The notes: a model not told the origin generated them from the letters alone. DNA of 57,696 nt from an uncultured Bacilli bacterium (GCA_947631475.1 CANRLI010000001.1:1-57696); one strand, 5' to 3'; numbered from the stretch's first letter, positions 28,931 through 57,696 are shown. Program-made: numbers and translations.

Positions 28931-29130
28931 TAAATATAAAAGACATTTTCATCATAAGGACGAAAATGTCGTGGTACCACCTTAATTTCTGATATAATCA
29001 GCTCAAGATTGATAAAGGAATTACCCTATAAAGCTCCAAAAGCAAGTTCATATATTTTATCATACTAATTTACACCAACCATTAGTTCTCTTAATGACTT
29101 AATATATTACTACTCTTTTTTCAACACTTA
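28931..29130 (-). promoter_or_regulatory. T-box leader (Leu, specifier CUU) with intrinsic terminator
   Basis: On the minus strand: AAGAGAAC, then the distal hairpin ACTAAT-GGTTGGTGTAA-ATTAGT, then GAA-CTT-G (CTT = 29044-29046). The T-box core is AAATTAAGGTGGTACCACG (about 28970-28988). The terminator GACATTTTC-N11-GAAAATGTC (28942-28970) is followed by a U-run. Confidence 0.85.
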
Positions 29131-29136
29131 ATGTGT

Positions 29137-39153: not shown

Positions 39154-42100
39154 TTATTTTGTTTTAATAATGGCATCGTTATCTGCACCGTTAGGGTGAG
39201 AAGAAGTTGTTTTGGTGCCCTCAATATATACTATTTCAAATTTATCTTGGGTTAAGCTATAAATATCAAAGGTATAAGCATGAGTAGTTAATTGTTCTTC
39301 ACTAATATCAAGACCTACTCTAAATTTTGGATGTAGTGATTGTTTGACATCAGTTCCAGATAAACTAAATGTAATATTCTCTTTAGCATCTTTGACATTA
39401 ATATATAAACCATAATCACCAGCATGAGCAAAATTAAAGGTATTTTGTTTAACATCAATGGCTGATGAGTTAGTGATATCATTTATAATAATATGCTTTT
39501 TAGTATTAATACCGCCATTAAAGGTGTTACCAACTAAACGAGTATAATTATCGTTATTAGTCAATTTAGTATTATCAATGATACTATCAAAAATGATAAA
39601 TGATTCTAAGTGATCTAAAGCATTAAAGGTACTAAAATAGACAGCATTATTTGGATTTTCTTTGTTGATATAAATAGCACTAGTAAAATCATTTGCCGCT
39701 TCAATAACAGCTTGATATAATCTTAAACCACCATTTTGAGCTTTAATAATATATTTATCTTTTTCAAGAAGAGTTTCGGTAGTATATTGACCAATTATTT
39801 TGATATTATCTAAGATGACGTTACCAGAATTAAGAAGCATAGTTCCTTTAATGGTTCCAACAATAGTCTTACTACCCGTCTTACGACCCGTAATTGTAAC
39901 ATCATGATTGATTTGTAAAGTATCAGTTAAAGTAATTTCGGAATTAACAATAATAGTTTTAATATTGGCATTGTTGATAGCTTCTATAAGTTCTTCTTCA
40001 TTACTTACTTCTTGCGCAGTAGCCTTCATTTTACCTTCTAATTGAGCGACATAATAAGAATCAGCCTTTGGTGCAGGAATCTCACCAACATTAAAGCACG
40101 AACTATCGTTAGTGTTACACCATTGTTTTACTTTATAATCATAATAAGCGTTACTATAAGTAGTTAAATAATCCATATCTATAGGTGGCTCTTTAAGATT
40201 ACTAGTGTCTGTAGCTTTGTGATAACGAATAAAGCGAATAACAGAAGAGGTAATATCACGATTAGCAATATATGTTATTTTATACCATCCAATAGAATGA
40301 TTTGCACTAACATAGTAATGATTATAATTGTAATTTTCTTTGTCACGAAGAAGATCACCTTTGGTAAGATCACTAGTCTGGGTATCTTTAATATCCTCGT
40401 AAGCAACCCTTTCTTGATAAGTAATTGGTCCTGCCCCATTAACAATATTAACTTTAGCATTTGGTTTGTTGGCTAAAACTGCTGGATGGTCATAATCTTC
40501 TTTGGTATCGATTAAATCTGTAGCATTTAACGTAGCACCACTAGCTACCTCGATGCCAGTTATATTTGTAGCAGATACATCAACATTGTTAATATTTAAT
40601 GTTGCATTAGCAGCAACAGTAATAGCTTTAGCAAGTTCATTATTAGCACTAGCAATCGTTAAACTATAAATAGTTATGTTTCCATTTGTAACAGCTAGGG
40701 CTTTATCAGTTACATCATCTGTAAATGTTATAGTATGATTTTGACCTTTAATAATAAGATCTTTATTTAATTCAATAGTTTTATTTACTTCAAAAGAATC
40801 AGTTAATATAATACTATGGGTTTTACCTGAAGTAGAACTTTTAGCTAAAGCCTCTTCTAACTCAGATTGGTTAGATACTTCATCATGATCAGCTATAGCA
40901 AAATCAATAGTTAAGGTTTTAGAGTTAAGATCTTTATACTTATCAACAGGGCTTAGTAAATCCCCTATTTCAACTGTAATTTCATATTTACTTGCAACTA
41001 AAACATCTAGATATTTTTTGTTATTAGCTTGTTCTGATGATATCACTTTATCTATAAAGGAAGTTAATTCAGTAGCAATAGTTTCATTATTAGCTGAAGT
41101 AAATTTAATAGTCTCATTGTTAGCTTTAAATGTTATATCTTTTATTTCACCACTATTTATTAGATAAGCAATAAGATTTGGAACAATGCCAGAAGTAAAT
41201 TCTGATAGATTAATATTTTCTGAAACTAATAGTTCATATAATAATTTATGGTTTTGATTATTGTAAGTAATATTAATCTGATCATCTTGTAAAGCATAGT
41301 AATCAACAAGATCATTTAATAAGGCATCGATATCAACTATCCAATGAGCTTTTAAAGTAATATTATTTAAATCGGTAGTAGCTGTCTTATTATTTTCGAA
41401 AGAAAATAGATTATTTTCTTGATACCAGTTATCAAATTCATGATATAGTTTTTTACTTGAAGGATTAGCTGGTTTTTCGATTGTTTCACCTTCATAATAA
41501 ATTGTAGTTTCAGGATCAACATTTAAACCATAATCATAAGTTATTTTAATTTCATCAAGAGCTTTTAAAGTAGAATAATTAATCTTATATGAAACTTCGT
41601 TATAATTATGAGCTGTTGGACCATCTAAATCAATAGTTATGACAATATTTTCACCACGAGATATAGAATCTTTATCAATGCTAAATAATGCTACTACTTG
41701 ACCATTTATAATATCTGTAGAATTTAATGTATATGAATTTTTTCCATAATTAGAATTTGTTAATTTAATGGTAGCATCTGGTAAATTAAGAGGAATATTT
41801 AAAACTAATGGTAGATAATAACCTGTTTTAAGATCGCTAGGCATTGCAATACTTGTTTGTTGTTTAATTGTACCAGTTAGGGAATATTGATATTCTTGGT
41901 TATTAACAGGACTAATACTTAATTCATTTAAGTCATTATTATAATTTAATTTACTTAAATCTTCATTAGTTAATAAATCATCACTAGTAGCTATTTTAAT
42001 ATCTGATATAAAAGATTGTTCTTGTAAAACTAAAGAAGTCCAATCAATAGTTATATTATATGGGGCATACTTAGAAGCTGAACCGTCTATATCTATTTCT

Positions 42101-43761
42101 ATTGCAAAAGTATTGTTATCATCACTATGAAGGGGTTTTAAAACAGTCATCATATTATTATTGAATGTAGATTTACCCGTTATGATTTTTTCAGCATCTT
42201 CCCCATCAGCTAAAAATTTAACTGTTGTTTGATCGGTAACAGGATCTGTTAGTTTGATAGTAAATGCTAAGTAATGGTTCTTTAAGTGCTCAAATTCGTC
42301 AACATTTTTACTTATTTCAGGGATGTAAGGAATTAAACCTGTAACAGTAGTTTGATGGTTAGTTGTTTTAAAAGAGGTTTGATAATCACTACCCTTTTCC
42401 CATCCGTATTTAGTAGCTAAAGCAGATAGTTGTTCTGAATTAGGTTGTTCAATGCTAAATTTGGAAGGTAGTTCAAATAAGACTGATGAATAATTTATGG
42501 TATAAGTTGTTGGGGTGTAAGCTTTTTTATCGCCATCTAAATCGATTACAATATCAAAGGTGCATTTACTGGAATCTTCATCTTGACATTTATCATTTAG
42601 TTTAAATAAAACTGTTAAATAATCAAGATTATTTAAATCACTCTTGCGGATTGTTTTGGTAGAGTTAGCTCCAGCAGGAATTGTAATAGTTATATCATCT
42701 TTAAAATCGTCTAATTTAATGTTATAAGCAAAATAGTATGCATCTTCCCCTTCAGCTTTAAATACGCCATTATTTGTATGTTGTTCTATTATTTTCCCTT
42801 GTAATGCAAATTCATTATTTGATCCTGGAATTAATTGGTAATCGTCGGTTGGAAGAATATACCCCCATTCATTTAGTGCTAATTCATCGGGATAAGGAAT
42901 ATCTAAACTGATTTGGGCTAAAGAAGCAACAGGGAATGTTACATTAGCCCAATTAATTGTGTATGTTTTTTCATCATAAAGAGTTTCTGGTCCATCTAAA
43001 TCGACATGAATAATAATGTCTTTATTGGAAGAAGTGGTATCTAATTGCCAAACTACAGCAAGACCAGATAAGGCTTTATCTTTAATTTGAAAATCATTGT
43101 AAGAATAAGTTTTAGTGGTAGTACCTTCTATATTGACAGTTGTTTTAGCTGTAGCATTAGGTACTTCAATAATAAAGGAAAAATAATTTCCTGGAGTTTC
43201 ATTAACTGTTTTATTTTCGAAGATTAAACCACTTAAGTTATTATTTTCTAAAACTAAGTCTTCACTATTAGCTTTATTGCCACCACTAAATTTTAAATCA
43301 TCAGAAATAAAGCTATCATAGTCTTCTTTATTTAAGATAACTGAGAAATTGGTTGGTTCAGATAATGGTTGATAGTCAATAAAGCGAATATCTAGTTCAG
43401 TTTGTTCAGTCAAGACGCTAGATCCTACTAAGTTAGTGGAAATTTTCCATACAGGAGCATCATCAATATATTCTTGAACAATGTAGTATATTGTCATTTC
43501 ATCATAAATTGCATCACTTGCGACTTGACCACTAATGTCAGTGACATTAATACTACGTGAAGCTAACATGATGTCTTGGGTTTTTAAAATGTGTTCAGAG
43601 GTAAATGCATATTCTCCAATGATGTATGCATAATAACCATGGTAGTCATTTTCTATCAAAGTTCCTAATTCACGAACGGTCATTTTTTTAGCATTAACAC
43701 TAGTTAAAGAAAAGATAAATAAGAAAATAAATGATACTAGTAATTTATAACTTTTTTTCAT
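39154..43761 (-). CDS. giant surface protein: signal peptide, four novel ~150-190 aa repeat modules, a Listeria-Bacteroides (Flg_new) repeat and two beta-helix-like regions
   Basis: ATG 43761 lies 8 nt after AAGGAG. Module signatures are HVDLDGPETLYDEKTYTINW, VIDLDGDKKAYTPTTYTINY, EIDIDGSASKYAPYNITIDW and TIDLDGPTAHNYNEVSYKINY. YHEFDNWYQENNLFSF...LKAHW is Flg_new-like. EVSNQSELEEALAK...IIKGQNHTITF and EVSNEEELIEAINN...VTITGRK look like pectate-lyase-fold starts. Confidence 0.75.
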   Translation of the reverse strand: MKKSYKLLVSFIFLFIFSLTSVNAKKMTVRELGTLIENDYHGYYAYIIGEYAFTSEHILKTQDIMLASRSINVTDISGQVASDAIYDEMTIYYIVQEYIDDAPVWKISTNLVGSSVLTEQTELDIRFIDYQPLSEPTNFSVILNKEDYDSFISDDLKFSGGNKANSEDLVLENNNLSGLIFENKTVNETPGNYFSFIIEVPNATAKTTVNIEGTTTKTYSYNDFQIKDKALSGLAVVWQLDTTSSNKDIIIHVDLDGPETLYDEKTYTINWANVTFPVASLAQISLDIPYPDELALNEWGYILPTDDYQLIPGSNNEFALQGKIIEQHTNNGVFKAEGEDAYYFAYNIKLDDFKDDITITIPAGANSTKTIRKSDLNNLDYLTVLFKLNDKCQDEDSSKCTFDIVIDLDGDKKAYTPTTYTINYSSVLFELPSKFSIEQPNSEQLSALATKYGWEKGSDYQTSFKTTNHQTTVTGLIPYIPEISKNVDEFEHLKNHYLAFTIKLTDPVTDQTTVKFLADGEDAEKIITGKSTFNNNMMTVLKPLHSDDNNTFAIEIDIDGSASKYAPYNITIDWTSLVLQEQSFISDIKIATSDDLLTNEDLSKLNYNNDLNELSISPVNNQEYQYSLTGTIKQQTSIAMPSDLKTGYYLPLVLNIPLNLPDATIKLTNSNYGKNSYTLNSTDIINGQVVALFSIDKDSISRGENIVITIDLDGPTAHNYNEVSYKINYSTLKALDEIKITYDYGLNVDPETTIYYEGETIEKPANPSSKKLYHEFDNWYQENNLFSFENNKTATTDLNNITLKAHWIVDIDALLNDLVDYYALQDDQINITYNNQNHKLLYELLVSENINLSEFTSGIVPNLIAYLINSGEIKDITFKANNETIKFTSANNETIATELTSFIDKVISSEQANNKKYLDVLVASKYEITVEIGDLLSPVDKYKDLNSKTLTIDFAIADHDEVSNQSELEEALAKSSTSGKTHSIILTDSFEVNKTIELNKDLIIKGQNHTITFTDDVTDKALAVTNGNITIYSLTIASANNELAKAITVAANATLNINNVDVSATNITGIEVASGATLNATDLIDTKEDYDHPAVLANKPNAKVNIVNGAGPITYQERVAYEDIKDTQTSDLTKGDLLRDKENYNYNHYYVSANHSIGWYKITYIANRDITSSVIRFIRYHKATDTSNLKEPPIDMDYLTTYSNAYYDYKVKQWCNTNDSSCFNVGEIPAPKADSYYVAQLEGKMKATAQEVSNEEELIEAINNANIKTIIVNSEITLTDTLQINHDVTITGRKTGSKTIVGTIKGTMLLNSGNVILDNIKIIGQYTTETLLEKDKYIIKAQNGGLRLYQAVIEAANDFTSAIYINKENPNNAVYFSTFNALDHLESFIIFDSIIDNTKLTNNDNYTRLVGNTFNGGINTKKHIIINDITNSSAIDVKQNTFNFAHAGDYGLYINVKDAKENITFSLSGTDVKQSLHPKFRVGLDISEEQLTTHAYTFDIYSLTQDKFEIVYIEGTKTTSSHPNGADNDAIIKTK

Positions 43762-43781
43762 AATCATTGCTCCTTTCATTT

Positions 43782-45119
43782 TTACTCAATATTTCTTCTA
43801 CTGTATACAACATTAGCTGTTACATAGGTATTAGCATCAAGATATACTCGTAAAGTTTTAACTGAGCCATTGCCTGTTAAAGCGTTTGAAACAGTTTTAT
43901 TAGTTGGTAAAACACGTGTATTCCCAAAGAGGATATAGGCATAATCGGTAAGAGCTTGACCATCTTTGGAAACTGCTATTTCATATTGATCGGTAGCACC
44001 TGTTGCTTGAACTAACGCCGTTAAGGTAACTGTGTAATTAACAGGTTTAGCTTTAACTATAATATCTTTAGAGGCAGTTTTACCACCATCTTCCGTTGTG
44101 ACAGTAATGGTAACATGTCCTTCTTTAAGACCAGACACTCTACCATTGGCATCAACTGTCGCAGTGGAGTTATCACTACTAGACCAGCTTAAATTTTTAT
44201 TATCAGCGTTAGATGGAGTTATCGTCGCCGTTAAGGTTATTTGATTACCAGCTACCACTTCGCTTGGGCCATCAATTGTTACGTCAGTTACTAAAATTGC
44301 TTTTTTAATCGTAACTTTAATTACTTTAGTAGCTTTGATATTACCATCGTTAGTAATAGCTGTTATTGTAACAGTTCCTTCTTTTTGACCTTTAACGTTA
44401 CCATTGGCATCAACTGTTGCAATACTAGTATCACTACTTTGCCATGTAACAGTTTGATTAGTGGCATTAGTTGGTTTGATATTAGCTTTTAATTTAATCG
44501 TGCTACCAACATTGACACTGGAAGAACCACTTATGGAGATTTCTTCAACTTTAACAATTGTTTTAGTAATAATGATTTTAATATTTACAGTGTATTTATC
44601 ATCGGCTGTTTTAACCGTAACATTTGCTACTCCTTCTTTTAAGCTTTTAACGTTACCTTCTTGATCAACAGTAACAATTGTTTCATCATCTGAAGACCAA
44701 AGCAAATCTGAAATATTAACATTTTTAGGAACAGCAGTTACTTTAATCTGAGCAGTTTCATTAGGACCCATTGTTAGCGCTTGTGGGTCAACAACGATAT
44801 TATCAACCTCGCCATCTTCTTTCCAACGGGCTTCTAAAATCATGTTATTAGTAATTTTTGTCGTAAAATCAAATTCTTGATCATTATAAAACCAACCAGC
44901 AAAAACATAACCTTCCCGAGTTGGATCGTCTGGTTTTCTTAACGTATCGTTTTCATTAACGTTGATAGTTTCGTAACCATCGCCATTATTGTAATCAAAA
45001 GTAACATCATACTTAATAGAATCACAACTACCAACCATTAACAAGACGATAACAATAATAATTAAAACCCCAATGATTGCTTTAAGAAGCATCTCTTTTT
45101 CATTTTTAGTATCTTCCAT
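43782..45119 (-). CDS. surface protein with a Flg_new repeat and three Big_2 (bacterial Ig-like) domains
   Basis: ATG 45119 lies 6 nt after AAGGAG. N-terminal TM anchor. REGYVFAGWFYNDQEFDF...LEARW. Three repeats of type TWQSSDTSIATVDANGNVKGQKEGTVTITA. Confidence 0.8.
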   Translation of the reverse strand: MEDTKNEKEMLLKAIIGVLIIIVIVLLMVGSCDSIKYDVTFDYNNGDGYETINVNENDTLRKPDDPTREGYVFAGWFYNDQEFDFTTKITNNMILEARWKEDGEVDNIVVDPQALTMGPNETAQIKVTAVPKNVNISDLLWSSDDETIVTVDQEGNVKSLKEGVANVTVKTADDKYTVNIKIIITKTIVKVEEISISGSSSVNVGSTIKLKANIKPTNATNQTVTWQSSDTSIATVDANGNVKGQKEGTVTITAITNDGNIKATKVIKVTIKKAILVTDVTIDGPSEVVAGNQITLTATITPSNADNKNLSWSSSDNSTATVDANGRVSGLKEGHVTITVTTEDGGKTASKDIIVKAKPVNYTVTLTALVQATGATDQYEIAVSKDGQALTDYAYILFGNTRVLPTNKTVSNALTGNGSVKTLRVYLDANTYVTANVVYSRRNIE

Positions 45120-45313
45120 ATAAATCTCCTTCATTAAAATCATAGACAAATATACTTATATTTTGACCAAGAGTTAGTTTTTTTGTTTTTTTGTAAAACT
45201 ATTTGTCAACTAAAATGCAGACTTTACACATGTATAACATTAAACTCGATCAATAACATATACACTACTTCTATAACATAAATATATCAAATAAAAATTA
45301 GCTAGTCAACGAA

Positions 45314-45364: not shown

Positions 45365-46003
45365 TTAATTTTTAAAGTAGGCATCAACATAGTAGATGGG
45401 ACGGCCTTCTTCGTAATATTTTTTTTCAAAATCAGTCATAATATTAGGAATTGGATTTTCATCATGATGTAAGTCTAAACTAAGGCGATTAAAAACATAC
45501 CAATATTGCGATAATGATTGTAAAGAATATGCAAAGAAGCCTTTATTATCTGTTTTTAAAATAATGTGTTTATCTTTTTTAAAAATCTTATCATATATTC
45601 GGAGATAGTTTTCATGAGTAAAGCGCTTTTTCTCATCAATTCTTTTAGGCCATGGATCACAGAAAGTTAAATAAATAGTATCAATTTCTTTACCAAAAAT
45701 ATTAGCGATTTCATGAGCATCAATATTAATTAACTTTAAATTAGGTAGTTTTTGATTATTTAGGCGATTAACTGCCATAACCATTTGTGAGTCGATTACT
45801 TCTAAACCAATAAAGTTAATTTTGGGATAAGTTTTAGCCATGTTAATTATAAAGTCACCTCGTCCCATTCCTAATTCTAAATGAATGGGATTTTTATTAC
45901 CGAATAAATCAGCCCATTTATTTTTATAACTGGTAGGATTATTTATAACATAAGGAGATCTACCAACGATTTTAGCAGCATCTTTTATTACTTTATATTC
46001 CAT
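45365..46003 (-). CDS. second, divergent TrmB-like SAM-dependent methyltransferase
   Basis: HLELGMGRGDFI and TFCDPWPKRIDEKKRF align with the trmB copy at 13398-14030, but the basic RHxKRR patch is altered. It has its own extended -10 (TGTTATAAT, 46025-33) and its own terminator. Confidence 0.75.
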   Translation of the reverse strand: MEYKVIKDAAKIVGRSPYVINNPTSYKNKWADLFGNKNPIHLELGMGRGDFIINMAKTYPKINFIGLEVIDSQMVMAVNRLNNQKLPNLKLINIDAHEIANIFGKEIDTIYLTFCDPWPKRIDEKKRFTHENYLRIYDKIFKKDKHIILKTDNKGFFAYSLQSLSQYWYVFNRLSLDLHHDENPIPNIMTDFEKKYYEEGRPIYYVDAYFKN

Positions 46004-46167: not shown

Positions 46168-47721
46168 TTAATGATTAGAAATAGTAAGAGGAATTAAAGT
46201 ATTGACCCATTTATTTAAAATTGTTTGAACTTTTTTATTAGGTAGTTTGTTATATTTTAAACGGGCTTGCACAAGCGTATTGTTTTTGATTTCAATAGTA
46301 ACATAAGATTTGTTTAAATTTTTTTTCTGACGCATAAAGTAGACTTGGCATTCAAAGTTAGCTATTTTGGGAATATAAGTACGAACACAATTTTTTTGCT
46401 GATGGCTTTCATCTACTAAAGAAGCAATTGACGAAGCAGGATAAATGACATATGTATCATCTTCGTATTTATTAATAGCTAAGATATCTGCCAAAGAATG
46501 TATCTTAGCGTCAATAACAGGATCATAAATAACTTGTATTTGATCATATAAATTATTGTGCACTACAAATAAATCTTTTGGATATAAAACCTGTTTATCA
46601 TTTAAGTCTAAGTGAACCGTTTGAGCTAAATTAAGATAATCTAAGTATTCAGATAAGTAATAATAATTGTCGGCATTACATAGATAAGTTCTTAGTGCAT
46701 TTAAATCGATATGATAATTATTTACTAGTTCTATTATCTCCGTGGAATAGACGTTTAACCAACTACTAAAATATTTAATAGTTTCTAAGGTGGCTAAAGG
46801 ATATAATTTTAAAATGAAATATTCAGAAAAAGAAAGATTGTTCTCTACCATAAAAGTTAAATACTTTTTATCAAGCCCAAAAATATCTTTAAAGTTTGAA
46901 CCTTTAGTAAACACATAGGGAGTTTTTAAGGCCAAATTATAAAGTTTATAATTAACTAGGTATTCAAATTGAGGATAATAAAGAGGATAAAAAGTTAATT
47001 GCGCAATAGTATAAGTTTGATATGTATTTAAAGTAGAAATAGTTTGCCATATTCGGCTATATTGATAGATTGTATTTTTAAGTTTATTTAAATTTTCTAA
47101 ATAAAGATAAGCTGGTTTTTCTTCATAAAGAAGTTGATCATAAAGATTGGTTGTAATAAATGTTTCATTAAATAAACTATTTTGGTTAAGATTATTTTTT
47201 TGATATTTAGCTAACTCAATAAAAGGTACATATAAATTAGCTTCTAAATCAGTAAGACCATCTTTTTCAATTAAATATGAATTATTAATAAAAATATGAC
47301 TATGTTTTTGATAAGTACTTAATTGAATTTCTTCATAATATATTTCTTCTGTTAAATAGTATAAGTATGTATTTTCATTATCAACATTAAAAACTAGGTA
47401 ATGACAAGAATGATTAAAATGACTAAGATTAGCCAAAAAATGAGAATTATCTATACAAAAGACATCCCTATTATCATATAAATAAGTTCCTTGATATGAT
47501 TTATATTGTTTATGGCATTTGGGACAAAAGTTCTTTTGGTTCAAGGGAGTTAAGCACTTACCGCAATAAAAAATATCTTCTAAATCATTATAAATGAGTA
47601 CGTTATCCGAAGTTTCTTCAATAAAGTCGATAACTAAAGATGGCAAATCATCTTGGTGATGCCAGTAAGGAATGTCACGCACTGTTTGCAAATAATTTTC
47701 GTCCCATTTTAATTGAAACAT
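46168..47721 (-). CDS. PcfJ-like domain protein with N-terminal zinc ribbon
   Basis: CGKC...CPKC zinc ribbon. The C-terminal LVDESHQQKNCVRTYIPKIANFECQVYFMRQ...YVTIEIKNNTLVQARLKYN resembles the PcfJ (pCF10 plasmid) domain pattern. AAGGAG SD. Confidence 0.5.
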   Translation of the reverse strand: MFQLKWDENYLQTVRDIPYWHHQDDLPSLVIDFIEETSDNVLIYNDLEDIFYCGKCLTPLNQKNFCPKCHKQYKSYQGTYLYDNRDVFCIDNSHFLANLSHFNHSCHYLVFNVDNENTYLYYLTEEIYYEEIQLSTYQKHSHIFINNSYLIEKDGLTDLEANLYVPFIELAKYQKNNLNQNSLFNETFITTNLYDQLLYEEKPAYLYLENLNKLKNTIYQYSRIWQTISTLNTYQTYTIAQLTFYPLYYPQFEYLVNYKLYNLALKTPYVFTKGSNFKDIFGLDKKYLTFMVENNLSFSEYFILKLYPLATLETIKYFSSWLNVYSTEIIELVNNYHIDLNALRTYLCNADNYYYLSEYLDYLNLAQTVHLDLNDKQVLYPKDLFVVHNNLYDQIQVIYDPVIDAKIHSLADILAINKYEDDTYVIYPASSIASLVDESHQQKNCVRTYIPKIANFECQVYFMRQKKNLNKSYVTIEIKNNTLVQARLKYNKLPNKKVQTILNKWVNTLIPLTISNH

Positions 47722-48449: not shown

Positions 48450-50309
48450 CTATAGTTTAAAATCTTCGAGGAATGATTTTACTAATTTGTCGGTACGTTT
48501 TTGTATTTTATCGATAGTCCAACTATCTTGTTTAACTACGTCTTCGTTTAACTTTAAACCATTTTTATAACCAATGTATTTATTTTTTTCTTGCCTATTT
48601 TTCTTTCTGTCAAATGACATATTAGATAGTTCTCCGTTGTATCCAGTAATGGTTAAGTTGCCAAAAGTATGAGCGTATTGGACTAAATATTGATCAGCTA
48701 ACTCTTTATTTCCATCAGCTATCATTTCAACCCAGCAATCAGGAATTTTTTCACCTTCAGGGAAAATATGTTCAATAGTCCAGATATATTTATTATTTTT
48801 ATCTCTACTCCACAAATCCGTGTATCTTTCTGTATTCATATACTTTTCTTCATAATAACATAAGATAAATCTTGTAGCTTCTGGATTATCCTCATACACA
48901 TTTCCTCTTAATGCTTTTTCAAAAGTATCATCATCAGATGAATTCTTTTTCAAATACTCAGTAAGAATATTATATATTTCTTGACCTTTTTTATCTTTTA
49001 TATTAGATATTGCATCCATAAATATCTTTGTTAAATTTCTAGTATTAGGAAAATCAGTTAAATTTCTTCTAACAAAATATTTTGTTAAAAAATTTATTAC
49101 ATCAGCTACTATTTCATCTGTTATTTGTAAATCTTTTTTATTTCTTAATAAATAAAGTAATAAGATATAAGATGGTGCTCCACCAATTCGAGATAAATTA
49201 AGTAAAGGTTTCTCTAAAGTAACATTGAAATTTTTTTCAGTTGTATTATTAATTAGTAAAGCATAATTTTGAGCATCAATTTTAATACGATTTAAAAATG
49301 TATTATAATTTTTTTCGATAAGTTGAGAATAAATATTTAATAAGGTTGATTTGGTAGCTAAGGAACCTAGAGGATACTTAGTTTTGGTGTCAATAATAAA
49401 ATCTTTATTTAGTTCATCACGATATGTGTTGTAATATTGTCTAAAGAATCTTTCTTGATCAGAATATTCATCTCCTAAATAAGAAATAATGCTTTTCCAT
49501 TCATCATAACAATCGCTAGCTTTACCGTCGGCATCGGCAACTCTAATAAGTAAATTTTTAATTAAATCGATGGCAGATAATGGAACACCACGGTTATTTA
49601 AAGATTCAAATAACATATACGCATCTTTATTATTGTTTACTTCTATCGAAACAAGTATTGCTGAATTAAATAAGTCAGCTAAATTAAATAATTCGTCTAT
49701 TTTAAATTTGGTTAAATTTTCTTCTATTACTTTTTTCTCTTTAATTTTTTCATTAATATATAACTCAATGCTATTAATAAAGTAATTAAAAGCTTTATAT
49801 ATTCGGCGATTACCAGCATTATTTTTCTTCTCACAACTTTTTAGAAGGCCACACTCATACAATAAACTATTATAATCGTATTGGTTTTCTTTTTGAATTT
49901 GTAAAGTAAGACGTGGCGTATTAATATATTCGCCTTCTTCATTTTTGTTTTTATATATTAATTCATTCATTATGTTAACGTATGCTGCTGTTTGTTCATC
50001 ATTAAAATAAGTTTTAAATTCTTTTAGTTTAGTATATATAGCAAGTAACAAAATAGATAGTGTCGTAATTCTTTGTTGACCATCGATAACTTCTAAAATT
50101 ATATCATTATATGTTCCTTTACTAACATTAACAGTGATTATTGAACCTAAAAAATATTCTCTATCATTATCAACAACATCATTAAATAATAATCCCCACT
50201 CTTTATTACTCCAAGTATATTCTCTTTGATATTTAGGTATTTTATATAAGTATTTTACGTTAATTGAAAAAATATCTGCAATCTTTAATGGTTTAGTACT
50301 TATTATCAT
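48450..50309 (-). CDS. DUF262 + DUF1524 protein (GmrSD-like type IV restriction / nuclease candidate)
   Basis: N-terminal IPKYQREYTWSNKEW and IDGQQRITT (DUF262, ParB-like NTPase). C-terminal WTIEHIFPEG ... HTFGNLTI (DUF1524 His-Me finger). Own extended -10 TGCTATAAT at 50331-50339. Confidence 0.75.
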   Translation of the reverse strand: MIISTKPLKIADIFSINVKYLYKIPKYQREYTWSNKEWGLLFNDVVDNDREYFLGSIITVNVSKGTYNDIILEVIDGQQRITTLSILLLAIYTKLKEFKTYFNDEQTAAYVNIMNELIYKNKNEEGEYINTPRLTLQIQKENQYDYNSLLYECGLLKSCEKKNNAGNRRIYKAFNYFINSIELYINEKIKEKKVIEENLTKFKIDELFNLADLFNSAILVSIEVNNNKDAYMLFESLNNRGVPLSAIDLIKNLLIRVADADGKASDCYDEWKSIISYLGDEYSDQERFFRQYYNTYRDELNKDFIIDTKTKYPLGSLATKSTLLNIYSQLIEKNYNTFLNRIKIDAQNYALLINNTTEKNFNVTLEKPLLNLSRIGGAPSYILLLYLLRNKKDLQITDEIVADVINFLTKYFVRRNLTDFPNTRNLTKIFMDAISNIKDKKGQEIYNILTEYLKKNSSDDDTFEKALRGNVYEDNPEATRFILCYYEEKYMNTERYTDLWSRDKNNKYIWTIEHIFPEGEKIPDCWVEMIADGNKELADQYLVQYAHTFGNLTITGYNGELSNMSFDRKKNRQEKNKYIGYKNGLKLNEDVVKQDSWTIDKIQKRTDKLVKSFLEDFKL

Positions 50310-50438: not shown

Positions 50439-51770
50439 TTATCTTTTTTTTACTAATTCTTTAGGCATTTCTTGGGCCATTTGGTAATTACTATAACGAC
50501 TGTCTTCCGTTACTTCTTTAATAGTTTTGATAAATTCAGGAATTCTTATAGTGGCGTTTTCATCGCTTAGTTCTATTTCCATTATGGCTTGATTAGACCA
50601 TTCTGGGTAAATATCAATCTCAAAGTATTGATTATCAATTGATAGACAGTATCTTGTTTTGTGAATAGTATGTAATTTATTATCAGCTGACATTAATAAA
50701 GATAAATACTCATTTTGCGTAAGTTTTCTTTCTATTTCAACTCTTTTAAGATTAGATATTCTTCGTTTTTCAGTTAAATAATATAGATAATTGCCATCGA
50801 TACCTCTAGCTCGTATTCTTCTTTCGGTTCCGTCTTGACTTTTTAAGTAAGTTTGAGAAATATCAACTTTAGTACAATTTGGCATTTTTTCTAATTGGTT
50901 AATATTTGGATAATAAATTAAAAATTTTCTTTCTATTTCATAAGGCTCTGGTTCACCTAAAAATGAAGCAATCTCTTTTAGTAATCTTTCTAGTTTTTCT
51001 TCGAAGTCAGTACTATTATCAATAATTCTAAAATGAGGATGACCGGTCCATGCCGCTATAATTTTATCATCAAGTTGGCAAGCCTCATCGATAGTTTCGG
51101 TTCTAGCAGTATTATTAGCAAGAGTATAAAATTCAGGTTTATCTTTAGCCGCGCTCACTAAATGAAAGATAGCATCATAAGAATCCCTTTCACGTACTTC
51201 GTTAGTATTGAACTCTTGTAAAACTCTTTTAAATTCAACATCTTTCATGTATGCTTTATTATCTAAAGTCCCACGATCACATACAATAAGAATTTTATCG
51301 CTTTTCATTTTTTGAGCAGCCTCATCAAATATTTGCTCTTTGACTTTTTGTAATTTCATTTGGGACATTTGAAAATCATATCTTGATTGACAAGTCCAAG
51401 GAGAAACTCCATTAGTAATTAACTCAGTAGCAGTTTCAGGGACTAGTAGGACTGTATAACCTCTTTTAGAAAAATAATTATTAATCCAAGTTAATGCCGT
51501 AGTTTTACCAGCACATGGTCCACCAGTCAAAACAATTTTACTAATTTTAATTTGGTTAGGGTTTTCTTGACTCGCTAATAGGTCATTTAAAGGAACATTA
51601 TATAAAGCTGATAGTAATTTTAGTTTATCTAAAGTAGGTTTTGATTTACCCATTTCCCATTTACTAACTGCTTTATCACTTACATCAAGTTGATAAGCAA
51701 CAAATCTTTGAGTTAAATTATTCTCCTTTCTAAGATTAAATAAATAATTACCAAAATCAATATTTTTCAT
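50439..51770 (-). CDS. three-domain fusion: XRE-type HTH + NadR-kinase-like P-loop (AAA_28-like) + CYTH triphosphate-tunnel domain
   Basis: HTH is LRKENNLTQRFVAYQLDVSDKAVSKWEMGKSKP. P-loop is VLTGGPCAGKTT, with CDRG downstream. The CYTH start is EIERKFLI, followed by RIRARG, TEKRR, VEIERK, KTRY, FEIDIY and MEIE strands. AAGGAG SD. Confidence 0.7.
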   Translation of the reverse strand: MKNIDFGNYLFNLRKENNLTQRFVAYQLDVSDKAVSKWEMGKSKPTLDKLKLLSALYNVPLNDLLASQENPNQIKISKIVLTGGPCAGKTTALTWINNYFSKRGYTVLLVPETATELITNGVSPWTCQSRYDFQMSQMKLQKVKEQIFDEAAQKMKSDKILIVCDRGTLDNKAYMKDVEFKRVLQEFNTNEVRERDSYDAIFHLVSAAKDKPEFYTLANNTARTETIDEACQLDDKIIAAWTGHPHFRIIDNSTDFEEKLERLLKEIASFLGEPEPYEIERKFLIYYPNINQLEKMPNCTKVDISQTYLKSQDGTERRIRARGIDGNYLYYLTEKRRISNLKRVEIERKLTQNEYLSLLMSADNKLHTIHKTRYCLSIDNQYFEIDIYPEWSNQAIMEIELSDENATIRIPEFIKTIKEVTEDSRYSNYQMAQEMPKELVKKR

Positions 51771-51970: not shown

Positions 51971-52732
51971 TTATACATTTTCCCATAATAAAGTTTTATC
52001 TTTAATATTTATTAATTGTTCATCTTTCTCTTTTAATAGCTCATAGAAGTCTTCATTAACATAATAAATATGTTTTATTGCACTACAATCTAAGTTATTT
52101 GGCATATAGAGTCTGGTTTCTTGTGATTTAAAATCGATTAGCATACCATTACCGATTCTCATCATATGATTAGATGGATCATTTGATTTGAAAATTTTAT
52201 CTGCTAATGTTTGCGTAACATTTACATATAAATCATAAGTATTTTCATCTAGTTTAACTAACATAGCCAAACCATTACTATAATTTTTGAGATTTACTTT
52301 GATATATATGCCGTTATCTTGGGGAACTTCAACGTTGACAAGACCATCTTTATAATCTAGAGTAGTTTCTAATTTGAAGACAAAATGATAAATACCTAGG
52401 ATTAATACTATTAAAATTAAAGAGATGGATAAACCCGTAATAAATTTCTTTTTAGTTTTATTAATTTCTTTATTTGAGTATTCAATAGTATTTTTTAAAA
52501 CTTTTTCTACTTCATTTTTTGGCATTTTTTCTCCTTTTAATAAATCATATAGACTTATATCTAATATTTCTGTAAGTGGTATTAAAATAGAAATATCAGG
52601 AAAACACAAACCTCTTTCCCATTTTGAAATAGCCTTGTCTGTAACTAACAATTTTTTGGCTAAATCCTTTTGAGTAAGACTTTTTTGTTTGCGAGCTTCA
52701 CTAATAATTCTACCTGTTTTTTCTGGATCCAT
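51971..52732 (-). CDS. XRE-family HTH protein with a single TM helix and an extracytoplasmic C-terminal domain
   Basis: ARKQKSLTQKDLAKKLLVTDKAISKWERG HTH, TM helix GLSISLILIVLILGIYHFVF, and a ~130 aa C-terminal domain. TAAGGAGGA SD. Confidence 0.7.
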   Translation of the reverse strand: MDPEKTGRIISEARKQKSLTQKDLAKKLLVTDKAISKWERGLCFPDISILIPLTEILDISLYDLLKGEKMPKNEVEKVLKNTIEYSNKEINKTKKKFITGLSISLILIVLILGIYHFVFKLETTLDYKDGLVNVEVPQDNGIYIKVNLKNYSNGLAMLVKLDENTYDLYVNVTQTLADKIFKSNDPSNHMMRIGNGMLIDFKSQETRLYMPNNLDCSAIKHIYYVNEDFYELLKEKDEQLINIKDKTLLWENV

Positions 52733-54211: not shown

Positions 54212-54280
54212 GATAAAAAAATGATATCATGACACTATTAGCATTTATTAGGCTAATGTTCATAGTATCATAATATCATT
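54212..54280 (-). terminator. long-stem rho-independent terminator closing the three-gene cassette
   Basis: Minus-strand arms AATGATATTATGATACT / AGTGTCATGATATCATT (17 bp including two G-U) with an inner ATTAGC/GCTAAT hairpin, followed by TTTTTT. Confidence 0.7.
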
Positions 54281-54284
54281 AAAA

Positions 54285-55211
54285 CTATTTTTTCTTTTTC
54301 AATAGATGTTTATCATCGCAAATATTAAATTTTTCTTCATCTATTTTAATATAATTGCCTAAAACTATTGTATCTAGAAAAGATCTAATATCTTCTTCAA
54401 TATTTTCACCTTTTACGCCCATTTGTTCGGGCCAGTTAATAAAAATGTTATTTTCCTTAATACGTAATATTTTCTTGATTTCATCAGTTGACATATTTTC
54501 ACCATAATGATGTGTCCATTGTCTATTTAGGCCATTAGTTGTTTCTGTTATTCGAAATAATATTCTTCTTGCAAATGATGGATTGCAAAAAGCAAAATAA
54601 AATTTTTGTAAGTTAATTCTTTCGCCAGGAGATTTTAATATTATATCGGTAAATAATATTTGATTTCCCACTTTGGATATTTTATAAAATTTTAAATCAA
54701 CCCTATAATCAAGACTCTCAAAGAAATCGATTAATGAAAGAGTAAGTAATCCGTTTATAAATATTTGATTTTGTGTAGTCGTCCATGGATAACTACAATT
54801 ATAATTAATTGTTATAATGTTTTGGGCATTATCATCATTGTATACTTTTCTCATTGATAATGGTAAATTATTGATAGCATTAACCACATTTGGAACACTA
54901 CCACAAATATAATTATAATAAGTTTTTTTCTTAGCAATATAAGGAAAATACTTATCTATTTGTTTCTTTTGAGCTAAAAATTTGTCAAAGTCTTCATACC
55001 AACCATTTTCAAATAATTGTAATGCTTCAGCAAAAGATTTAGTTTTCGACCAGGCGATATATTCCTCAGAAATATTATGAGATAATATTTCTCTAGTTGA
55101 AAATGTTGTTGAGGTTTTAGCTGTCTTAAGATAAGAAAGTAAATCTTGTTTATTTTTAAATGTTATTTCAAAAAAATCATAGTCATCCTTAGAATAAATA
55201 TTACTTTTCAT
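54285..55211 (-). CDS. cassette gene C: 308-aa protein of unknown function
   Basis: The start lies 3 nt after the gene B stop, with a GAAGG SD inside gene B. No catalytic motif recognised. NIITINYNCSYPWTTTQNQIFINGLLTLSLIDFFESLDYRVDLKFY could be a degenerate Rossmann/vWA-like beta-alpha-beta, which is speculative. Confidence 0.6.
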   Translation of the reverse strand: MKSNIYSKDDYDFFEITFKNKQDLLSYLKTAKTSTTFSTREILSHNISEEYIAWSKTKSFAEALQLFENGWYEDFDKFLAQKKQIDKYFPYIAKKKTYYNYICGSVPNVVNAINNLPLSMRKVYNDDNAQNIITINYNCSYPWTTTQNQIFINGLLTLSLIDFFESLDYRVDLKFYKISKVGNQILFTDIILKSPGERINLQKFYFAFCNPSFARRILFRITETTNGLNRQWTHHYGENMSTDEIKKILRIKENNIFINWPEQMGVKGENIEEDIRSFLDTIVLGNYIKIDEEKFNICDDKHLLKKKK

Positions 55212-55214
55212 ATT

Positions 55215-56546
55215 TTATGCCTTCTTTAGTGCCATTTTTTTGAATCCTTCTGAATAAATAGATGGTTCTATTCCTTCATCATCAAATCTTTGAGATATAA
55301 TATTCATATCTTCAAAATCTAATTCTTTGACTATTGTATATTGTAAAATTTGTTCAGTTGTGAATCCTGCTTCTTTTAACTTACTTGCATAGTCAATATT
55401 TCGAGTAGTAACAGTATGTCTAATTCCACAATCACTGATTATTCTTCTAAAATTCCAGAAAAATTGTAATAATTCATCATCTTTTATAATTGATTTTTCA
55501 ATTCTATGATCATAATCAAAATAAAGTTGAATAAATCTGTCTAGCGATGCAGAATCTAATTCACTTCGACCACAATACATTCGATTGGCACCATTTCCCC
55601 AGGTATTAGCGGCAGCAATTATTCTAAAATTAGGATGAGCTTTTGTATATTGACCATCTTCAAACGCCATATAAATGTTACCATTAGTCGTTGCGCCAAT
55701 GGCCGAATTTAATGATAATAAGGCAGAAGGATGACTATTATCTATTTCATCTAAAAAGAATAATCCTCCATCTTTAAATGCTTTGTAAAATTGGGTTTCT
55801 TTATACTTGCCATGAGCATCGGTAAATCCTAATAATTTATATTCTTCACTGGCATTATTTGTATAATACATTGGCAAATCCAGTGCATTGGCGACTTGTC
55901 CAGCACAAACTGATTTACCAGAGCCGGTTGGACCAATTAGCATAACTGGTAAGCCCATTTTTATTAGCTTATATATAGTTTCAAATTGTTGATGATATAA
56001 TTCTTTGTCCAAAACTTTTTCTAATTCCCCATTTTGGTAAATTTCAATTGTTCTAGGTCGAACATCTTCAATTTCAATTCTCTTCGTTGCTTTAGCGACA
56101 ATATCATTAATAACTCTTTTTTTGACATTTTCTATATAATTAGCTAATTCATACGCTTCTACAGCAGTACTTTGGATTGTTTCTTTTTGTTTTTCAATTA
56201 ATGCATTAGTCTCATCAGTCGCCTTTTTAATTAGACTCTCCTTATATTCACTAAGAGATGAAATTATTTCTTTCCTAATATCATCTCTAAATTGTTTAAT
56301 GTCATCTAAATCTTTTAGATATTGTTCCATAGTTATGCTTATACTTTCAACAAAACCTTTAATCCTACTTTTCGATAATAATCTATTAGTTAATGTATTT
56401 ATTTTGGTTTCTAAAGCAACTTTTGATTCAATTTTTTTACTAATATCTTTTCCTTCTTGATTAATTAATCTTTGAAGTTCTTTTTGTATTACTTCTTCAA
56501 TATAAATTCCTAGTTCTAATTTTTCGTCATCTGTTAGTGTCGTCAT
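55215..56546 (-). CDS. cassette gene B: AAA+ ATPase (AAA_5 / MoxR-CobS-McrB class) with a ~190-aa N-terminal coiled coil
   Basis: Walker A LIGPTGSGKS and Walker B LFFLDEIDN. FRIIAAANTWGNG and SELDSASLDRF (sensor and arginine region) are typical of the dynein-related AAA_5 class. The N-terminal half is heptad-rich and Lys/Glu-rich. The start overlaps the gene A stop (TAATG). Confidence 0.75.
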   Translation of the reverse strand: MTTLTDDEKLELGIYIEEVIQKELQRLINQEGKDISKKIESKVALETKINTLTNRLLSKSRIKGFVESISITMEQYLKDLDDIKQFRDDIRKEIISSLSEYKESLIKKATDETNALIEKQKETIQSTAVEAYELANYIENVKKRVINDIVAKATKRIEIEDVRPRTIEIYQNGELEKVLDKELYHQQFETIYKLIKMGLPVMLIGPTGSGKSVCAGQVANALDLPMYYTNNASEEYKLLGFTDAHGKYKETQFYKAFKDGGLFFLDEIDNSHPSALLSLNSAIGATTNGNIYMAFEDGQYTKAHPNFRIIAAANTWGNGANRMYCGRSELDSASLDRFIQLYFDYDHRIEKSIIKDDELLQFFWNFRRIISDCGIRHTVTTRNIDYASKLKEAGFTTEQILQYTIVKELDFEDMNIISQRFDDEGIEPSIYSEGFKKMALKKA

Positions 56547-57481
56547 TATTTTTTACCCCCTAAAACTAATTTTTTACTCTTTTCAGATGCAAATTTCTGA
56601 ATATATTCTTTAAAATTTTGAATATAGAAACTCGCATCAAAAGGAATAGTAAAATATTCTAATATCATTTCAAAATCAATGTGCTTTATATTTAGCAAAT
56701 ATTTACTTACAAACTCTAAATATTCTTCTTTTTGTTTTTTATCAAAATTATCATATACGTTAGCTAATGAGATACCAATTGGGTAACTTATTAGTATATA
56801 TACTTTCCTTTGAAGATTTTCTACTTCGGCTACAAGAGAATAATATTTATTATCATCATGACGAGGATTTTTAACTATTTTAGGATTAGTTTGAGCTAAT
56901 TCTTTTTCTTTTTCTATATATTTGGGTAGCAAAGTTTTTAGTTTTTCTAAGCAATTAATTGCATTACTAATATTTAATAAATCGAATTGTTGAGCAAAAA
57001 TATCATATCCAAAATCATTAATGTATCTATCTAAACATAATTTGCCAAATAATATCGAGATAGTTTCATCATATATCGTAGTAGAATGTAAATATCTATC
57101 ATTGTTAAGCTTCGTAATTGATTTTAATCCATGGCCTAATTCGTGGGCAGTTACTAAAATATCTAGACCATTTGTTATGCACGGAACATTAATTTGAACA
57201 TTTTGTGTAACTCCCAAAATTACCTCATTTATACAAATAGAATTTTCAGCATTAAAGTCTTCTACAAAATGAATTTTATCTTTTAAAAGTTGCAGATATG
57301 CAAGATAAAGTCTTACATCAATATCTTTAATCATATTACCTATATATTTAATTCCTATATCATTTGTTAAAAACTTGTTATGTATAGGTAATTCAATTTT
57401 AGAAGGTAAATTAGTCGTAGCAATTTCTGAATTACTAAAAGTATTTATAAATATTTTGGCATTTTCTTTGATTCCTTCCAT
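56546..57481 (-). CDS. cassette gene A: short HEXXH+E (gluzincin, M3-like) metallopeptidase
   Basis: VTAHELGHGL is followed 20 residues after the second His by YDETISILF, consistent with a third Zn-ligand Glu as in M3/thermolysin-clan enzymes. ATG 57481 lies 5 nt after GGAGG; the track start 57496 is a TTG inside the SD region. Confidence 0.65.
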   Translation of the reverse strand: MEGIKENAKIFINTFSNSEIATTNLPSKIELPIHNKFLTNDIGIKYIGNMIKDIDVRLYLAYLQLLKDKIHFVEDFNAENSICINEVILGVTQNVQINVPCITNGLDILVTAHELGHGLKSITKLNNDRYLHSTTIYDETISILFGKLCLDRYINDFGYDIFAQQFDLLNISNAINCLEKLKTLLPKYIEKEKELAQTNPKIVKNPRHDDNKYYSLVAEVENLQRKVYILISYPIGISLANVYDNFDKKQKEEYLEFVSKYLLNIKHIDFEMILEYFTIPFDASFYIQNFKEYIQKFASEKSKKLVLGGKK

Positions 57482-57505
57482 AATTACCTCCAACAATTGC
57501 GCTTT

Positions 57506-57534
57506 ATAGTAACATAAAAACAGGATTTTGGCAA
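57506..57534 (-). promoter_or_regulatory. sigma-A type promoter of the three-gene cassette (TTGCCA-17-TACTAT)
   Basis: -35 at 57529-57534 and -10 at 57506-57511, ~25 nt upstream of the gene A start. Confidence 0.5.
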
Positions 57535-57660
57535 AAATATGTACTATTTTAAAGAATAAAAGTTTTAATATCTTTACGATGGTTATTTAAATTAATTATC
57601 TGGCTTACTATGGAAAGGTAATTTTTTTAAAATCTTAGTTTCGGAATATTTTGTTGTATC

Positions 57661-57696
57661 AAAAAAGTAGACTATCTTTATAGATTTAGTCTACTT
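57661..57696 (-). terminator. rho-independent terminator of a minus-strand gene lying beyond the right edge
   Basis: Perfect 9-bp stem AAGTAGACT / AGTCTACTT (57665-57673 and 57688-57696) with a 14-nt loop, followed on the minus strand by TTTTTT. Confidence 0.6.

Follow-up and report, generated by a model that had tools for sequence, protein, structure and literature searches.

A mobile-looking cassette of uncultured gut Bacilli joins a phage ATPase-DUF7192 pair to a small putative zinc protease

What could be the function of three tightly coupled minus-strand genes, spanning positions 54285-57481, in a 57,696-nt stretch of DNA from an uncultured Bacilli bacterium (GCA_947631475.1, CANRLI010000001.1:1-57696)? 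The whole stretch is called the window in the following, and all coordinates are counted from its first letter unless another genome is named. The genes, here designated A, B and C, are predicted to encode a short protein with the signature of a zinc protease, a MoxR-class AAA+ ATPase and a protein of the Pfam family DUF7192, respectively. On balance we favor, with a confidence that only just tips to its side, that the cassette encodes an ATP-driven protein-remodeling machine of the CobS/CobT-NorQ/NorD type, which is of phage origin and to which a protease has been added. New is that the theme of AAA+ motor, vWA-type adaptor and zincin is here varied on a widespread, uncharacterized phage module and a zinc protease found almost nowhere else.

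The three-gene operon

The order A-B-C is the same in every locus in which gene A is found, which is in 12 distinct loci besides the window. In these 12 loci the tight coupling is kept and all three genes are intact, at 37-86% protein identity, and all three are under purifying selection, with ratios of nonsynonymous to synonymous substitution (dN/dS) of 0.13-0.26 for A, 0.06-0.15 for B and 0.10-0.27 for C. The genes are real because their order and coupling are kept in the 12 other loci and because dN/dS is 0.06-0.27 throughout. In the window the sequence TAATG at 56544-56548 holds both the stop codon of A and the start codon of B, and B and C are separated by 3 nt only (55212-55214).

An earlier note on this DNA, made from the sequence alone, had described a tightly coupled trio with its own promoter and with terminators on both sides (Table 1). 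The coupling is as described, the trio recurs as a unit, and the motifs quoted in the note (HELGH, DETIS, GPTGSGKS, FFLDEID and SELDSASLDRF) are all present. The promoter deserved a second look since a consensus scan alone was at chance level in this AT-rich DNA (32 sites vs 28.6 expected); the promoter element, the ribosome-binding site and the start codon are, however, kept in 8 of 9 related loci, and it is there that nucleotide homology begins. Gene A starts with ATG, with GGAGG at 57487-57491, 5 nt upstream, as ribosome-binding site; an alternative TTG start lies at 57496. The hairpin behind C has a folding energy of −23.8 kcal/mol (z = −5.85), which none of 200 shuffled sequences reached, and the hairpin upstream of the cassette one of −11.8 kcal/mol (z = −3.6); the gene for the Sel1-repeat protein, to which the latter hairpin belongs, was recognized in the source contig. 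The cassette is a real, conserved and insulated three-gene operon.

Table 1. Positions of the cassette's genes and control elements in the window
Feature	Position	Strand	Description
Promoter	57506..57534	-	-35 TTGCCA, 17-nt spacer, TG-extended -10 TACTAT; from consensus scan and conservation
Gene A	56546..57481	-	311-aa putative HExxH...E zincin; HELGH residues 113-117 (57131-57145), Glu139 (57065-57067)
Gene B	55215..56546	-	443-aa predicted CobS-like MoxR-class AAA+ ATPase (AAA_5); Walker A 55911-55934, Walker B 55743-55763
Gene C	54285..55211	-	308-aa DUF7192 protein, putative MIDAS-less vWA-like adaptor; flexible loop residues 98-128 (54828-54920)
Intrinsic terminator behind C	54212..54280	-	19-bp stem, then U-run; from fold energy vs shuffles
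Terminator hairpin of preceding gene (Sel1-repeat protein)	57661..57696	-	Upstream insulation of cassette; from fold energy vs shuffles

Across the 13 loci the trio comprises the only shared gene clusters, every flank being different. Homology between loci extends from 40-78 nt upstream of the start of A to 0-27 nt past the stop of C, which delimits a conserved unit of about 3.3 kb from promoter to terminator (in the window about 54258-57559). The trio is thus a mobile-looking bacterial cassette; at its ends no recombination signature (repeats, integrase) was seen, no systematic search for one having been made. All trio loci are from metagenome-assembled genomes (MAGs) of uncultured gut Bacilli. 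Three of the contigs (L013, L016 and L018) belong to MAGs labeled Muribaculaceae (Bacteroidota), which is probably due to mis-binning or mislabeling. A further MAG of an uncultured Bacilli bacterium (L017, 5224-7876) harbors between addAB and glmS a two-gene version with B and C only; the zincin gene is absent, and the ATPase carries an unrelated N-terminal domain of about 340 amino acids without a Pfam match.

The ATPase-DUF7192 pair of phages

Protein B matches Pfam AAA_5 (PF07728) with 51.5 bits (cut-off 22, E = 1.4e-13) and is a full-length member of phrog_249, a family named "porphyrin biosynthesis" (E = 1.4e-53, residues 85-413 aligning with profile positions 23-359 of 380). In 14 diverse homologues there is no variation at its Walker A, Walker B, sensor 1 and arginine residues (G205, G208, G210, K211, D266, E267, N314, T315, R337, R367, R382). 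Among proteins of solved structure its closest relatives are CbbQ (5c3c, 1e-6), NorQ (9qhd, 2e-5) and CobS. With CbbQ and NorQ the helix-2 insert of B can be aligned, whereas a long loop following sensor 1 (HPxFRxxAxANTxGxG...YxG...DR) is common to B and CobS and gapped in CbbQ and NorQ. Judged by its sequence, B is a CobS-like, MoxR-class AAA_5 ATPase, as the earlier note had already proposed. It is not a CobS orthologue, scoring 23.9 bits against the equivalog cut-off of 558.55 of TIGR01650. An N-terminal extension of about 190 amino acids is lineage-specific and occurs only in B proteins of the trio type.

Protein C, which the note had thought to match nothing, was found to belong to Pfam DUF7192 (PF23822; 76.6 bits, cut-off 27, E = 2.7e-21; residues 12-259 aligning with model positions 10-258 of 281) and to phrog_1909 (E = 4.2e-26). 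The literature searched contained no mention of DUF7192. A McrBC-like GTPase-nuclease (McrB is an AAA_5 protein acting in a finger-in-pore manner) was tried as a model for B and C and ruled out, C having neither a nuclease motif nor a nuclease match and B having the CobS-type loop.

It was via B that the connection to phages, missed in the earlier note, became apparent. By tblastn, relatives of B were detected in 427 GenBank phage genomes, with Staphylococcus (237), Mycobacterium (80) and Listeria (70) as hosts, and further in phages of Acinetobacter, Gordonia, Clostridium and Rhizobium and in one crAss-like phage; strictly lytic phages are among the carriers of the core pair. The phage proteins are true homologues (29-44% identity to B; C in Pfam DUF7192), encoded adjacently and on the same strand, as in Staphylococcus phage K (ORF14 with the AAA ATPase next to it) and in Listeria phage P100 (gp90/gp91). 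The ATPase gene adjoins one for a protein above the Pfam DUF7192 threshold in 10 of the 11 loci inspected. The exception is Clostridium phage CS266P2 (L022, 3719-4762), in which the first approximately 73 residues of DUF7192 are fused to the N-terminus of the ATPase (DUF7192 profile E = 1e-7, Pfam E = 0.011) and in which no separate DUF7192 gene was found within 4 kb of the ATPase gene; the fusion is a hint that B and C physically interact.

Among the 80 best loci from IMG/VR, 8 have the ATPase at a contig end; in all of the 72 evaluable ones a DUF7192 gene is adjacent and on the same strand, the median gap being 83 nt. A homologue of A was found in none of the 80. Near the phage pairs the A2 profile detected nothing below E = 0.1, and the only HExxH encountered there, in an A3R protein of 682 amino acids, is a chance occurrence. 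The neighbors code for helicases, primases, repressors, integrases, ParB and resolvases; the phage pairs thus occupy the early or replication-lysogeny region and have neither a virion nor a B12 context. From the bacterial trio they differ in this location and in lacking both A and the 190-aa extension of B. The B-C pair is first and foremost a module of phages, the two genes being obligately linked.

Hundreds of sequenced phages have the pair. They include phages with applications in therapy and food safety, namely Kayvirus (phage K) and the P100-type Listeria phages, as well as mycobacteriophages and crAss-like phages, but the pair has remained unstudied, its genes being routinely labeled "porphyrin biosynthesis" or "hypothetical." Could B and C then be cobaltochelatase genes, a CobS-CobT pair that works together with a host CobN? 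The name of phrog_249, the like annotation of phage homologues of B in GenBank and the CobS-type loop of B would speak for it, as does the wide distribution of cobST pairs among tailed viruses (PMC8651126). However, B is far below the CobS cut-off, C has neither MIDAS, the metal ion-dependent adhesion site, nor a match to the CobT Pfam family, no CobN was found among the open reading frames (ORFs) of at least 100 amino acids scanned in the window, and the phage pairs lie among helicase, primase and repressor genes. Staphylococcus aureus, the host in 237 of the phage records, is not known to have the aerobic cobalamin pathway or CobN. We consider a chelatase function of the pair next to inconceivable, and it is very unlikely that the cobaltochelatase label is correct; the label "porphyrin biosynthesis" on the phage genes is probably wrong.

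Since B and C are typical phage cargo, and since the small cassette sits at scattered positions under a promoter of its own, one could also think of a decaying prophage remnant or of a selfish "moron" without function for the cell. This explanation is largely refuted because of the purifying selection on all three genes, which have stayed intact in the 12 loci with their catalytic residues invariant. Also, the bacterial cassette is not adjoined in the inspected loci by phage genes for structural proteins, integrase or replication, and A is absent from phages. We hold a functionless remnant to be highly doubtful.

A different pair was noticed in Thermus phage P74-26 (L028, 26358-28870), where genes for p49, a short ATPase of the MoxR-like type labeled "lon protease," and p48, a vWA protein that has a MIDAS, are located beside those for DnaB and primase. 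In other phages this genomic niche is occupied by the AAA_5-DUF7192 pair.

Adaptor, protease and a possible mechanism

MoxR-class ATPases are known to work with partners that contain a vWA domain. In the cobaltochelatase system, CobT has an M48C-peptidase-like N-domain that binds the lid of CobS, and a vWA C-domain preceded by a flexible "shaft" (Q373-R413) that enters the CobS ring, the MIDAS residue Asp422 being located at the end of beta1 (preprint 10.64898/2026.07.21.739949). In NorQD a finger of the NorD vWA domain enters the pore of NorQ and is essential for remodeling (PMC13036017). Is C such a partner?

In the AlphaFold2 (AF2) model of C (predicted local distance difference test, pLDDT, 84; predicted template modeling score, pTM, 0.82) an N-terminal extension is followed by the segment 98-128, beta1 (132-138), alpha1 and a beta2-beta3 hairpin. 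The 31-residue loop 98-128, which AF2 leaves disordered (pLDDT below 50), is better conserved than any other part of the family (G104, P107, P117, M120). In BFVD, Foldseek retrieved DUF7192 proteins of Mycobacterium, Gordonia, Lactobacillus and uncultured phages (E 1e-13 to 1e-6, TM 0.5-0.65). The best folds from outside the family in the Protein Data Bank (PDB) and BFVD were vWA domains, at E = 0.017 or worse and TM 0.2-0.3, which is below significance. In the PDB, NorD in NorQ-NorD complexes was on top (E = 0.017, prob 0.63), and TRAP, Ku and factor B were also matched; in BFVD the vWA-type matches were phage vWA proteins, CobT-like proteins and a cyanophage "peptidase."

When a DUF7192 profile of 60 sequences was compared by hhalign with a CobT_C/vWA profile of 3 sequences, one collinear alignment of 97 columns was obtained (P = 0.026, Prob 1.9%). 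A scan of IMG/VR with the Roseobacter phage CobT for a larger CobT alignment found nothing, and the CobT/vWA profile was therefore limited to 3 sequences. In the alignment PLSMR (117-121) of C is paired with PLSYK (401-405) of CobT, N138 with the MIDAS residue Asp422, and FFESLDYRVDLKFY of C with TLERCGVKVEILGF of CobT, alpha1-beta2 being in register. This agrees with the secondary structure predicted by AF2, with the results of the fold search and with the published order of shaft and then beta1. The evidence from folds and that from profiles, each of them weak, are mutually consistent.

The MIDAS sequence DxSxS...T...D is absent from C, which has N138-C-S140-Y-P142 instead, in a column that is variable in 24 family members. 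Since MIDAS is not conserved in DUF7192, C is therefore not a canonical vWA domain. Model and alignments taken together suggest, as the most likely identity of C, a vWA-type adaptor without MIDAS that is strongly diverged and similar to CobT_C and NorD. Of the suggestion in the earlier note that C could be a cryptic vWA partner, the kinship to vWA is retained as the favored reading; a MIDAS and a vWA match in Pfam were not found.

Protein A had been taken for a gluzincin much shorter than the PepF-type M3 enzymes, and so it appears to be. H113, E114, H117 and E139 are invariant in 24 homologues of A. The AF2 model (pLDDT 84, pTM 0.85) has the layout of a zincin, with a three-stranded sheet followed by the HExxH helix (105-122) and a helix (140-157) at the conserved Glu. 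A HExxH on one helix and, some 20-30 residues further on, a Glu as third ligand on the next are what defines gluzincins (clan MA(E)), so that A, by motif and model, is a gluzincin-type HExxH...E protein. In the PDB the folds of highest probability were those of ACE2, neurolysin, an M32 carboxypeptidase and an organellar oligopeptidase, all weak (TMq 0.30-0.41, E > 0.3). A is outside the families M3 (PepF/neurolysin), M2 and M32, having no Pfam or NCBIfam match to them and comprising 311 amino acids as against the two-domain fold of approximately 500-700. Profiles of Pfam, PHROG, NCBIfam and PADLOC gave zero matches to A, and its own profile yielded only noise against the sequences of the PDB. 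The family is tiny: in an exhaustive profile search of 1.84 billion representatives 12 proteins were found, 7 of them full length, and a word-indexed search returned 38 clusters, all with at least 43% identity. The plasmid collection gave no match, nor did tblastn of A against phages. A protease of the ImmA/IrrE type (M78) paired with a helix-turn-helix (HTH) repressor, prompted by the presence of HTH_3 in 7 of 137 flanking genes, was ruled out, there being neither an M78 match nor a fixed adjacency.

When A was compared by hhalign with the N-domain of phage CobT, in which the motif reads HEAGH, only the strand and HExxH were aligned (P = 0.089), which is similarity at the level of the zincin motif. 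The 'CobT' concerned, from Roseobacter phage CRP-810 (L110, 2418-4370), has the HEAGH intact in its N-domain, whereas the solved bacterial CobT is without the motif at the aligned position. Given this HEAGH, the label "peptidase" on phage CobT genes may not be wholly mistaken.

How do these components compare with systems already described? CobS-CobT (structures 9UKx; 10.64898/2026.07.21.739949) shares with the cassette an AAA_5 motor with the same long loop after sensor 1; the CobT segment before beta1 of the vWA domain enters the ring, and DUF7192 is collinear over this segment, beta1, alpha1 and beta2; the N-domain of CobT is zincin-like (M48C-like); and A and C, with 311 and 308 amino acids, add up to about the 637 amino acids of CobT. 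The cassette differs in that B is far from the CobS threshold, the partner is split into two genes flanking that of the ATPase, C is without MIDAS, the HExxH...E of A is intact whereas the N-domain of bacterial CobT has lost it, and neither CobN (in the scanned ORFs of the window) nor a B12 context is present. For NorQ-NorD and CbbQ-CbbO the likeness lies in CbbQ and NorQ being the closest solved sequence relatives of B and in the NorD vWA domain being the top PDB fold match of C, which makes the finger-in-pore mechanism a plausible model (PMC13036017). NorD and CbbO have, however, a functional MIDAS and known clients, NOR and Rubisco, that are encoded nearby, whereas the cassette has no MIDAS, no conserved client gene and an additional protease.

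Pairs of a MoxR ATPase and a DUF2201-type metallopeptidase-vWA fusion protein occur in jumbo phages, for which a chaperone function with proteolytic processing has been proposed (PMC7824862). They resemble the cassette in combining a MoxR-class ATPase, a HExxH zincin and a vWA-type co-chaperone module. There, however, zincin and vWA form one polypeptide with MIDAS, and the proposed role in virion assembly is ill-suited to a chromosomal cassette without nearby phage genes; A and C had no match at E ≤ 1 to CobT, CobT_C, DUF2201 and DUF2201_N of Pfam. The earlier note had been reminded of such metallopeptidase-vWA partners of MoxR ATPases; we favor this echo too, the evidence from Foldseek and hhalign being weak. 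The MoxR-vWA ternary conflict systems described by Kaur et al. (2020; PMC7159879), known from multicellular actinobacteria, cyanobacteria and groups like them, also follow a three-gene logic, in which an AAA+ chaperone and its vWA co-chaperone are joined by a further protein, often one with a peptidase domain. They differ in their third components (VMAP, iSTAND, FtsH or beta-propeller proteins, with peptidases of the trypsin or caspase type) and in carrying effectors on the vWA protein; with Pfam no STAND, FtsH, beta-propeller, trypsin or caspase domain was detected in A, B and C. The cassette thus belongs to none of these systems (CobS-CobT, NorQ-NorD, jumbo-phage MoxR/metallopeptidase-vWA, MoxR-vWA ternary), and its architecture echoes them all.

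We envisage the remodeling machine as follows. B, like other members of its family, would assemble into a MoxR-class AAA+ ring. C would be its obligate adaptor, the conserved loop just before beta1 inserting into the pore of the ring like the CobT "shaft" or the NorD "finger," a step suggested by the weak fold and profile similarity and by the strict gene linkage. A, whose catalytic site is intact by sequence, would take the role that the peptidase-like N-domain has in CobT and in the metallopeptidase-vWA fusions, and probably docks on the N-terminal extension found only in trio-type B. Through ATP hydrolysis a target bound to C would then be remodeled, to be cut by A. The B-C core is a module of phage early/replication regions, to which the bacterial version adds A. 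Observed are the linkage of the genes, their conserved motifs and the purifying selection; the complex, the insertion into the pore and the proteolysis are inferred.

Several points weigh against this mechanism. The vWA link of C is below significance in both the fold search and the profile comparison, its sequence profiles match neither the vWA models of Pfam nor the PDB, and the MIDAS is missing. By sequence no relation of A to CobT_N, M48 or DUF2201_N could be detected, and its fold matches are weak. Compared by hhalign with the single vWA protein of Thermus phage P74-26, neither A nor DUF7192 gave a signal. The order A-B-C is not what one would expect from a simple fission of a CobT-like gene. 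Finally, the phage versions work without A, which may mean that A is a client or an unrelated add-on.

For the phage genes the strict linkage, the CobS/CobT-like layout, the lack of MIDAS and the location in replication/early regions point to a motor with a finger-in-pore adaptor and argue that the present annotation is wrong. The bacterial trio can be regarded as a natural experiment in which the same motor and adaptor are combined with a protease having an intact motif, and it may hint at the kind of target that the pair handles.

Client, conflict and genomic surroundings

The question whether A is partner or client leads to a different proposal, namely that B and C are a metallochaperone whose action on A would be to supply it with zinc or to unfold an autoinhibited form of it. 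The characterized pairs of MoxR-class ATPase and vWA protein mostly insert metals or activate one enzyme: NorQD loads iron into the nitric oxide reductase NOR (PMC13036017), and CobST serves CobN (CobSTN preprint). A would be a metalloenzyme, its gene is the first of the operon and overlaps that of B, and no other conserved neighbor is present that could be the client. Against this, the absence of A from all 80 phage pairs requires that the ancestral client was a different one, and C is without the MIDAS, the presumed client-binding site of NorD and CobT. Zincins, moreover, normally acquire their zinc without help. A metallochaperone function appears to us quite improbable.

An anti-phage or anti-plasmid defense system, as considered in the earlier note, would be one in which the captured phage ATPase-adaptor senses infection and releases or activates A, upon which the cell is killed or arrested or a phage protein is destroyed. 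The cassette is self-contained and has a different neighborhood in every genome, and homology to a phage module would suit the logic of a decoy or guard. An ATPase with a protease is a known defense layout, as exemplified by IetAS, and conflict systems of the MoxR-vWA type are on record (PMC7159879). IetS, however, is a subtilisin-like serine protease rather than a zincin, IetAS has no DUF7192 partner, and B is only a weak match to IetA (E about 1e-3), far below thresholds. With PADLOC-DB v2.0.0, A and C matched none of the families at E ≤ 1, and B matched only IetA, mad8 and RtcR, at 1e-3 or worse and in the P-loop region; its score with NCBIfam IteA was 17.9 bits (cut-off 510). It also argues against a defense function that phages, some of them strictly lytic, have the core pair themselves.

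With respect to the neighborhood, the window is chromosomal (tyrS, leuS, a Clp ATPase, ftsW and murJ-like genes), and the 137 flanking ORFs in the 13 loci are mostly housekeeping genes (EF-G/Tu family, Tex, ClpP, ECF/ABC transporters, methyltransferases); in one locus (L002) the cassette lies among GAPDH, an ECF transporter, truA and rpsJ. Some loci are near defense genes: GmrSD/Orf5 in the window and AbiLi, SoFic, PDC-M49A and HEC-06 in other flanks, each of them a singleton; matches to GajB in the flanks are probably AddA. The accessory block with GmrSD that the note had pointed out is thus there in this window but is not a conserved context across the loci. The genomic context neither supports nor excludes a role in defense, for which PADLOC and the flanks have provided no direct support, and we regard such a role as rather unlikely. 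We are similarly reserved toward the more specific idea of an immune or counter-immune module made from captured phage parts, in which the phage ATPase/DUF7192 pair together with the orphan zincin would form an ATP-gated protease acting on a phage or host-replication protein. If a role in phage-host conflict should be true, the cassette would represent a new type of ATP-dependent proteolytic system, and an immune module from phage parts would reveal the function of a gene pair in therapeutic Staphylococcus and Listeria phages.

Some other genes of the window, all on the minus strand, may be mentioned. Four genes downstream of the cassette, 48450-50309 codes for a 619-aa restriction enzyme of the GmrSD type (type IV, specific for modified DNA) with both GmrSD_N and GmrSD_C. 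Between it and a gene for a major facilitator superfamily transporter there are two HTH_3 (Xre-type) proteins (50439-51770 and 51971-52732), one of which (443 aa) is fused to an AAA_28/KTI12-like P-loop domain. The 517-aa protein encoded at 46168-47721 has a C-terminal PcfJ-like domain, of a family known from conjugative elements; no other conjugation genes were seen nearby. Two TrmB-like Methyltransf_4 paralogues (13398-14030 and 45365-46003) are located within 32 kb, and a homologue (cluster c8) is also found near the cassette of L016. A T-box leader (28953-29133; 100 bits) precedes a 131-aa ORF and leuS (26057-28477). Finally, the region 39154-45149 encodes a 1541-aa protein and a 455-aa protein with Big_2/Listeria-Bacteroides repeats, which are probably a pair of surface proteins.

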